Source: Escherichia coli
Lineage (GTDB): Bacteria; Pseudomonadota; Gammaproteobacteria; Enterobacterales; Enterobacteriaceae
Assembly (NCBI RefSeq): GCF_003334255.1
Contig: NZ_QOWU01000026.1
Reading direction: 5' to 3' (one strand)
DNA length: 63,217 bases
The position numbers and the translations under genes are program-made. The notes beneath the pieces are model-generated. The model ran no database searches. It saw nothing but the letters and a program-made list of their open reading frames with translations, and was not told the DNA's origin. Positions 2,890-3,000 of this stretch are shown here, one piece after another; the first letter of the stretch is position 1; each line of letters starts with the position of its first letter.

Positions 2890-3000
2890 TGAGCGTCGCA
2901 TCTGGCACTATTGGCGGATGCGGCGTAAACGCCTTATCCGCCCTACGCGTTAAAGAGCCGGTTTGTAGGCCTGATAAGACGCACTAGCGTCGCATCAGGC
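2890..3000. repeat. REP/BIME-type extragenic palindromic elements
   Basis: GC-rich imperfect palindromes (..gcggatgcggcgtaaacgccttatccgccctacg.. / ..gtaggcctgataagacgcactagcgtcgcatcaggc..) between convergent mntH and ypeC. Confidence 0.7.

Follow-up and report, generated by a model that had tools for sequence, protein, structure and literature searches.

A small, partly decayed and probably BIME-2-type REP cluster between the convergent genes mntH and ypeC of Escherichia coli

The 140-bp gap that separates the convergent genes mntH and ypeC of Escherichia coli is very probably a small, partly decayed REP cluster of the BIME-2 type. It may well help to end and protect both convergent transcripts, a function read across from other REPs. 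The gap occupies positions 2885-3024 of the window (the whole stretch of DNA that was analysed, 63,217 nucleotides), between the stop codons of the two genes. The initial annotation had placed REP/BIME elements between these genes at 2890-3000. The elements are there, with consensus matches far beyond chance; the place was correct and the limits were not, the real extent being 2892-3022 when remnants are counted. The cluster is an already catalogued, known kind of REP array, and its recognition has little consequence beyond correct annotation, with nothing new in kind. It would be best to mask the region as a REP/BIME repeat and to drop the ORFs predicted over it. The locus neatly illustrates the decay of REP arrays from their outer ends. 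It also exemplifies an mntH gene without an intrinsic terminator that apparently relies on Rho past the REP cluster, and a REP foot that serves as a natural, polymorphic landing site of IS621, a bridge recombinase element.

The locus and its identification as REP

The local gene order is nupC (-), ypeD/mntH (+), ypeC (-), yfeO (-) and glk (+). The two genes that border the gap are as follows:

1646..2884, + strand: mntH coding sequence, stop codon TAG at 2882-2884; from the ORF list and the RefSeq annotation of identical DNA (K-12 MG1655 and strain 504239)
3025..3351, - strand: ypeC coding sequence, stop codon at 3025-3027; Pfam DUF2502 (E 1e-23) and RefSeq annotation

The gap is identical to that of E. 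coli K-12 MG1655, as is the longer segment 2870-3040, and across positions 54-5352 a single base differs from MG1655, a SNP at position 1245. The RefSeq records of the gap DNA in K-12 MG1655 and strain 504239 have no repeat feature annotated. Upstream, the small gene ypeD (30 codons, annotated at 1576-1665) overlaps the start of mntH. A strong RNA 3' end was reported at MG1655 position 2512788 (window 1564), 82 nt upstream of mntH (Adams 2021 supplement), and suggests premature termination or processing within the mntH leader. The first 53 bases of the window differ from MG1655, where IS186C adjoins nupC. Because of this difference the strain is not MG1655; it is a K-12-like strain without the IS186C insertion beside nupC.

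A REP consensus search had been named in the initial annotation as the way to check the assignment. It was run with the REP queries published in the Methods of Durrant 2024 (PMC11208160), where three are listed. The query TGCCGGATGCGGCGTAAACGCCTTATCCGGCCTAC, of the GCCGGATG type, matched 2912-2946 on the + strand with 2 mismatches, and the query GCCTGATGCGACGCTGGCGCGTCTTATCAGGCCTACG, of the long GCCTGATG type, matched 2964-3000 on the - strand with 3 mismatches. None of 100 shuffled sequences matched in either case. No further REPs were found in the 63-kb window, also when looser searches, including blastn-short, were used. The sequence of the 140-bp gap matched at least 35-74 places per genome in all 5427 E. 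coli chromosomes searched and therefore belongs to a dispersed, high-copy family. The junction across the spacer (2938-2975) was found at a median of 1 place per genome in 3699 genomes. The segment 2965-3001 also matches a general REP pattern exactly.

Hallmarks of E. coli REPs are an imperfect palindrome of about 35 nt, GTAG at its foot and a two-base mismatch in the stem, and both GTAG and the stem mismatch are requirements for TnpA-REP binding (Ton-Hoang 2012). In addition to the consensus match, the mntH-ypeC sequences have the GTAG/CTAC foot, a bulged hairpin stem, an extragenic 3' location, inverted pairing and a high copy number, and the reading of these elements as typical enterobacterial REPs was thus supported. 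In strain YA-1, the gap between aceK and aceA (positions 1501-1637 of sequence L003) holds another BIME with 78% identity over 132 nt to the whole 140-bp cluster; therefore, some other loci share a similar overall arrangement and not REPs alone.

Anatomy and BIME class of the cluster

The cluster consists of two intact REP palindromic units with two remnants outside them, and extends over the following features:

2892..2907, + strand: truncated palindromic unit, 3' arm only (AGCGTCGCATCTGGCA), of a long GCCTGATG-class REP, probably Z2; 15 of its 16 bases equal 2986-3001
2912..2946, - strand: intact REP unit of the GCCGGATG class, probably Y; published REP query, 2 mismatches
2947..2964, no strand: locus-specific spacer of 18 nt, GCGTTAAAGAGCCGGTTT, separating the CTAC and GTAG feet of the intact units
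2965..3001, + strand: intact REP unit of the long GCCTGATG class, probably Z2; published REP query, 3 mismatches
3002..3012, no strand: short linker TTGTGCTCCAT(T), like the REP325 'l' linker; naRNA4 aligns AAUGGAGCACAAU to linker AAcGGUGCCGACU
3013..3022, - strand: outer-arm remnant of a GCCGGATG-class unit, a weak call; CGCGTCCGCC versus CGCATCCGCC in the intact unit (direct repeats D1, D2)

The intact units are inverted, so placed that the CTAC foot at 2943-2946 (+) and the GTAG foot at 2965-2968 (+) face each other over the spacer (inverted repeat I1), and the 10-nt remnant at 3013-3022 abuts the ypeC stop codon. Linkers in the cluster measure 5, 18 and about 11 nt. The unit at 2912-2946 reads GTAG-GGCGGAT-AA-GGCG-TTTA-CGCC-GC-ATCCGCC on the - strand, and the unit at 2965-3001 reads GTAG-GCCTGAT-AA-GACGC-ACTA-GCGTC-GC-ATCAGGC-A on the + strand. 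Both are predicted to fold into hairpins whose stems are interrupted by an AA/GC internal loop. For 2912-2946 the predicted energies are -21.3 kcal/mol (+) and -20.9 kcal/mol (-), with z about -3.8 against shuffled controls; for 2965-3001 they are -21.1 and -22.1 kcal/mol, with z of -5.6 and -6.0. The two departures of 2912-2946 from the published query, 2914 C>G and 2941 G>C, are a compensatory G-C swap that keeps the stem, because the two mismatched bases are partners in one stem pair.

The sole REP-derived family in Rfam is naRNA4 (RF02564), which models the 77-nt Y-linker-Z2 repeat of REP325. On the - strand it aligned to 3051..2968 (50.9 bits) and 2943..2892 (48.7 bits), with E about 1e-8, and a third score was 29.9 bits. 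The gathering threshold of the family, 59.5 bits, was not reached by any of these matches, and because of this the cluster is not filed as naRNA4: it is a related REP sequence and not a member of the family as curated. The first hairpin of the model is mostly deleted in the match at 3051..2968 and the second is mostly deleted in that at 2943..2892. In other words, naRNA4-like units align twice in tandem, each with one hairpin truncated, and the intact units number two. The unit at 2912-2946 differs very little from the first hairpin of the naRNA4 consensus. From these alignments, the locus looks like two tandem BIME-2 units with decayed outer halves.

Judged by its hairpin sequences, the composition of the cluster is Y plus Z2. 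The letter names, Y for the GCCGGATG-class unit and Z2 for the long GCCTGATG-class unit, carry some doubt, since they were obtained by combining two papers: the 'first REP of the 5' BIME' of the REPtron, which was crystallised, is GTAGGACGGATAAGGCG... (Messing et al.), and the REP of the REPtron 5' BIME is called 'y' and its partner 'z2' (Ton-Hoang 2012). An assignment of 2913-2946 to Z2 and of 2965-3001 to Y was discarded as reversed, given the Messing sequence and the Ton-Hoang 'y' naming. The IHF consensus WATCAANNNNTTR had no match in 2885-3024, even with one mismatch allowed. The linkers are short, as in BIME-2, and one of them is like 'l'; BIME-1, which binds IHF, was ruled out by the lack of the IHF consensus and by a longest linker of 18 nt.

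The cluster shares with REP325/naRNA4, the BIME-2 between yjdM and yjdN, both hairpin classes, near-identical in sequence, and the same - strand order (GCCGGATG-class unit, short linker, long GCCTGATG-class unit). REP325 is likewise a 3'-UTR element without a U tract, and its 'l' linker resembles the right-hand linker of the cluster. However, REP325 lies between tandem genes and is built of six exact 77-bp repeats with 12 intact units in all, whereas the mntH-ypeC cluster, flanked by convergent genes, has two intact units besides its two stumps, and the locus-specific 18-nt spacer also sets it apart. Elements of the BIME-1 type (RIP/RIB; Y plus Z1 with a long, IHF-binding L linker) resemble the cluster in being inverted REP pairs in an extragenic 3' region, but the linkers of the cluster are 5-18 nt long and its second unit is of the long BIME-2 class, not the short class. 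The REPINs/RAYTs of Pseudomonas and others also consist of two inverted REPs with a short spacer; the cluster differs in that its sequences are E. coli-specific and nearly every genome of the species has it at this position. As far as sequence can tell, the prerequisites of a TnpA-REP/RAYT substrate, a 5' GTAG and the stem mismatch, occur in the cluster on both strands. Its units would then be non-autonomous and belong with the repeats that the REP-associated tyrosine transposase, presumably encoded elsewhere in the genome, cuts and recombines in vitro. This enzyme binds REPs as single strands and cleaves at CT, either in the inverted partner or in the linker.

The BIME-2-like composition is also what would be expected if the cluster worked as DNA, by serving as a strong gyrase site or a nucleoid-organising cruciform (both reported for BIME-2 elements), instead of or besides any role in RNA. 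Gyrase cleavage sites are over-represented in a subset of BIME-2, independently of transcription (Sutormin 2019). We consider such a role unlikely by analogy with characterised arrays: the cleaved subset consists mainly of long arrays such as sucC-sucB, but this cluster has two intact units, and REP325 was found to cause neither nucleoid compaction nor REP-REP contacts (Harris 2026).

Transcript ends, variation among strains and possible roles

A terminator scan detected 0 terminator-like sites in 2700-3500, and neither hairpin is followed by a T/U run on either strand. Therefore, mntH and ypeC are without an intrinsic terminator here. Stable GC-rich hairpins on both strands between convergent genes would fit a bidirectional intrinsic (Rho-independent) terminator for mntH and ypeC, and 78 REPs lie within previously predicted bidirectional terminators (Harris 2026). 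However, this reading was rejected as extremely improbable because of the missing U run and the empty scan, and mntH-sense termination in the region is sensitive to bicyclomycin (Adams 2021).

A Rho termination region was reported at MG1655 position 2511284 (-), antisense to ypeC, with a Rho score of 3.84 and p 1e-10 (Adams 2021). It maps to window position 3068 (+), mntH-sense and inside ypeC in antisense, 67 nt beyond the last REP; this position is approximate, the measure using 800-nt windows, and it indicates termination near the REPs, not at them. Transcription in the mntH sense appears to run through the REPs and into the 3' end of ypeC before the Rho stop. This agrees with published accounts in which REPs partially terminate transcription through Rho and block 3' exonucleases. 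REP325 stabilises mRNA and terminates in part through Rho, and where a REP separates convergent genes, both tend to be expressed more highly (Harris 2026). The same study found that REP effects depend on context and that there is no general difference in mRNA half-life. In its supplement, mntH and ypeC appear only in the differential-expression tables of REP325 mutants, and the mntH-ypeC REP is not mentioned.

These data are compatible with a scheme in which the DNA of the cluster is non-coding and would be transcribed as a shared 3' untranslated region of both convergent genes. Because the GC-rich, bulged hairpins have no U tract, transcription of mntH would pass through them, and Rho would end it just beyond. 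The hairpins would also block 3'-to-5' exonucleases and in this way set the 3' ends of both mRNAs and shield them. The role as terminator or stabiliser is extrapolated from REP325 and from genome-wide correlations, and we give it about an even chance, since the effects of REPs are context-dependent and include no general half-life effect (Harris 2026).

The gap with its flanks was present at a coverage of at least 80% in 5319 of 5426 complete E. coli genomes. A contiguous mntH-ypeC match was absent from about 50 further genomes besides the 55 that carry IS621 at this locus. Variation was measured on nine aligned alleles, one of them reconstructed by removing IS621. The most conserved segment is the intact unit at 2965-3001 (4 of 37 sites vary, against 41 of 152 alignment columns for the rest of the gap), the most variable parts are the half unit at 2892-2907 (6 of 16 sites) and the spacer, and the remnant at 3013-3022 varies too. 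Both intact hairpins are present in 9/9 alleles, and 99% of the stem cells pair. One-sided changes in the stems are mostly from G-C to G-U or the reverse, and three of the nine alleles have an extra A in a loop. No double-sided compensatory changes within the locus, and no covariation signal, were found in the nine alleles, which hold too little variation for one, and the within-locus data give no statistical support for selection on structure.

Two further changes were observed in single strains. Strain ERL04-3476, which has an O157-type allele, carries a 1-nt deletion (at about 317 of sequence L014, equivalent to window 2916) in the left arm of the GCCGGATG-class unit, and the register of the stem is shifted; this is an example of the ongoing decay of an 'intact' unit. 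Strain 2013C-3181 has an 11-nt tandem duplication of AGCCGGTTTGT in the spacer (about 572-593 of sequence L004, equivalent to window 2956-2966). Its end falls inside the GTAG foot, two bases before the point where IS621 inserts (2968|2969), and the duplication could be a product of replication slippage or the scar of an event at the REP foot.

The main rival explanation is that the cluster is selfish or neutral repeat DNA, has no function here and is tolerated between two gene ends. It is a possible account, though a doubtful one. The decayed and highly variable outer units speak for it, as do the stem deletion in one allele and the spacer duplication in another, the 55 genomes that tolerate a 1.28-kb IS621 in the middle of the cluster, the lack of covariation and the lack of a general REP effect on mRNA half-life (Harris 2026). 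On the other hand, both hairpins are kept in every allele, with nearly all stem positions paired and one-sided changes that mostly turn G-C into G-U. The unit at 2965-3001 also varies less than the rest of the gap, and mntH has no other terminator structure.

In the allele of the window, the half unit at 2893-2907 can also pair with 2912-2926, with a predicted energy of -23.3 kcal/mol. This alternative hairpin starts 8 nt after the mntH stop codon. Ribosomes reportedly stall at REPs that lie fewer than 16 nt from a stop codon, a finding ascribed to Liang, Rudd and Deutscher in 2015; the RepRanger paper quotes this under-16-nt rule. The hairpin could therefore be thought of as a translational brake that stalls terminating ribosomes; its predicted stability slightly exceeds that of the canonical hairpin (-23.3 versus -21.3 kcal/mol), and it is the minimum-energy fold of the mntH-sense RNA. 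We nonetheless regard a brake as very unlikely. The canonical units start too far beyond the stop codons for the rule to apply, 28 nt from that of mntH and 24 nt from that of ypeC. The alternative hairpin also lacks conservation: the divergent alleles (strains 98192, AREA_499 and 2013C-4282) have many mutations in the half unit, and for them the canonical hairpin at 28 nt is predicted instead. The alternative hairpin is treated as a by-product of decay because its pairing is lost in these alleles.

A related and still more doubtful idea, which comes from the folding models, is that the K-12-type half unit at 2892-2907 would place a hairpin 8 nt after the mntH stop and thereby give allele-specific control of the 3' end of the MntH message. 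If this were true and the under-16-nt rule held, the output of the manganese transporter would differ between lineages through REP decay alone, and a third state would be represented by the strains, approximately 1%, whose cluster carries IS621.

Several open reading frames run over the region in the ORF list:

2943..3302, - strand: shadow ORF of 119 aa with a TTG start, running into the REPs
3004..3258, + strand: shadow ORF that begins just after the last intact REP
3012..3263, + strand: shadow ORF that begins just after the last intact REP
2889..2987, + strand: 32-aa ORF wholly inside the cluster

The initial annotation had mentioned short ORFs across the REPs at 2943..3302 and 3004..3263 and considered them likely artefacts. 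The first of these holds; the second merges 3004..3258 and 3012..3263, which are in different frames, and neither crosses the last intact REP. Their dismissal as artefacts proved right. All four ORFs exist, and 2943..3302 and 3012..3263 are open in 9/9 alleles, as would be expected of a real protein gene, but there is next to no chance that any of them is one. Searches for family matches produced nothing other than one sub-threshold chance hit (17.9 bits against a cut-off of 42), none of the ORFs is annotated by RefSeq, and the three long ones overlap ypeC out of frame or in antisense. Across the nine alleles, 23 variable nucleotides in ypeC lead to 0-2 amino-acid changes in YpeC, which is conserved as a protein, and cause 8-15 substitutions in the shadow frames, some of which gain stops. 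The ORF at 3004..3258 has stops in 3 alleles, and that at 2889..2987 has stops or frameshifts in 4. The ypeC gene was annotated in every genome inspected.

IS621 insertions and other features of the window

The targeting of REPs by IS621 is established knowledge (Durrant 2024, PMC11208160). The natural IS621 target ATCAGGCCTAC has an exact match at 2965-2975 (-), with its CT core within the GTAG/CTAC foot, and the 31-mer GCGTCTTATCAGGCCTACAAACCGGCTCTTT, which corresponds to this site, is among the natural targets of the IS110 family in the supplement of the same paper. The window carries no insertion at this site. In strain YA-1 the gap was matched best by the aceK-aceA BIME, which prompted a look at the mntH-ypeC gap of that strain. 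IS621 was found there (3353-4632 of sequence L008), as it was in strain 2013C-3264 (sequence L009). The insertion measures 1279 bp and lies between window positions 2968 and 2969, at the AG core (CT on the opposite strand) of the GTAG foot. The junctions in strain YA-1 are ...GGTTTGTAG|ATACTG... and ...AATACA|AGGCCTGATAAG..., giving the arrangement GTAG|IS621|AGGCC.

With a query that was anchored in mntH and extended into IS621, the insertion was identified in the mntH-ypeC cluster of 55 of the 5426 complete E. coli genomes, about 1%. A count of 753 genomes, obtained with a shorter junction query, was rejected as an over-count, as similar BIMEs elsewhere also carry IS621. These natural insertions show that the bridge-RNA recombinase of IS621 targets the long GCCTGATG-class unit. 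The cluster is identical in kind to the REP targets described for IS621, a member of the IS110 family, and is one of many such targets.

At the other end of the window, a tRNA-Arg(CCU) gene at 37754-37828 (-) directly adjoins dsdC. An integrative island or prophage lies beyond it (window 37754-63217), with a layout unlike that of CPS-53 in K-12. The features recognised in the island, the RNAs by Rfam matches, are these:

37949-39193: tyrosine integrase
41860-41945: C4 antisense RNA, Rfam match
41971-42049: isrK, Rfam match
48144-49163: RecT-family recombinase
50665-50753: sRNA-Xcc1, Rfam match
54572-56092: helicase
58719-58893: sok, Rfam match
59394-61355: methyltransferase-like protein
62696-62912: STnc100, Rfam match
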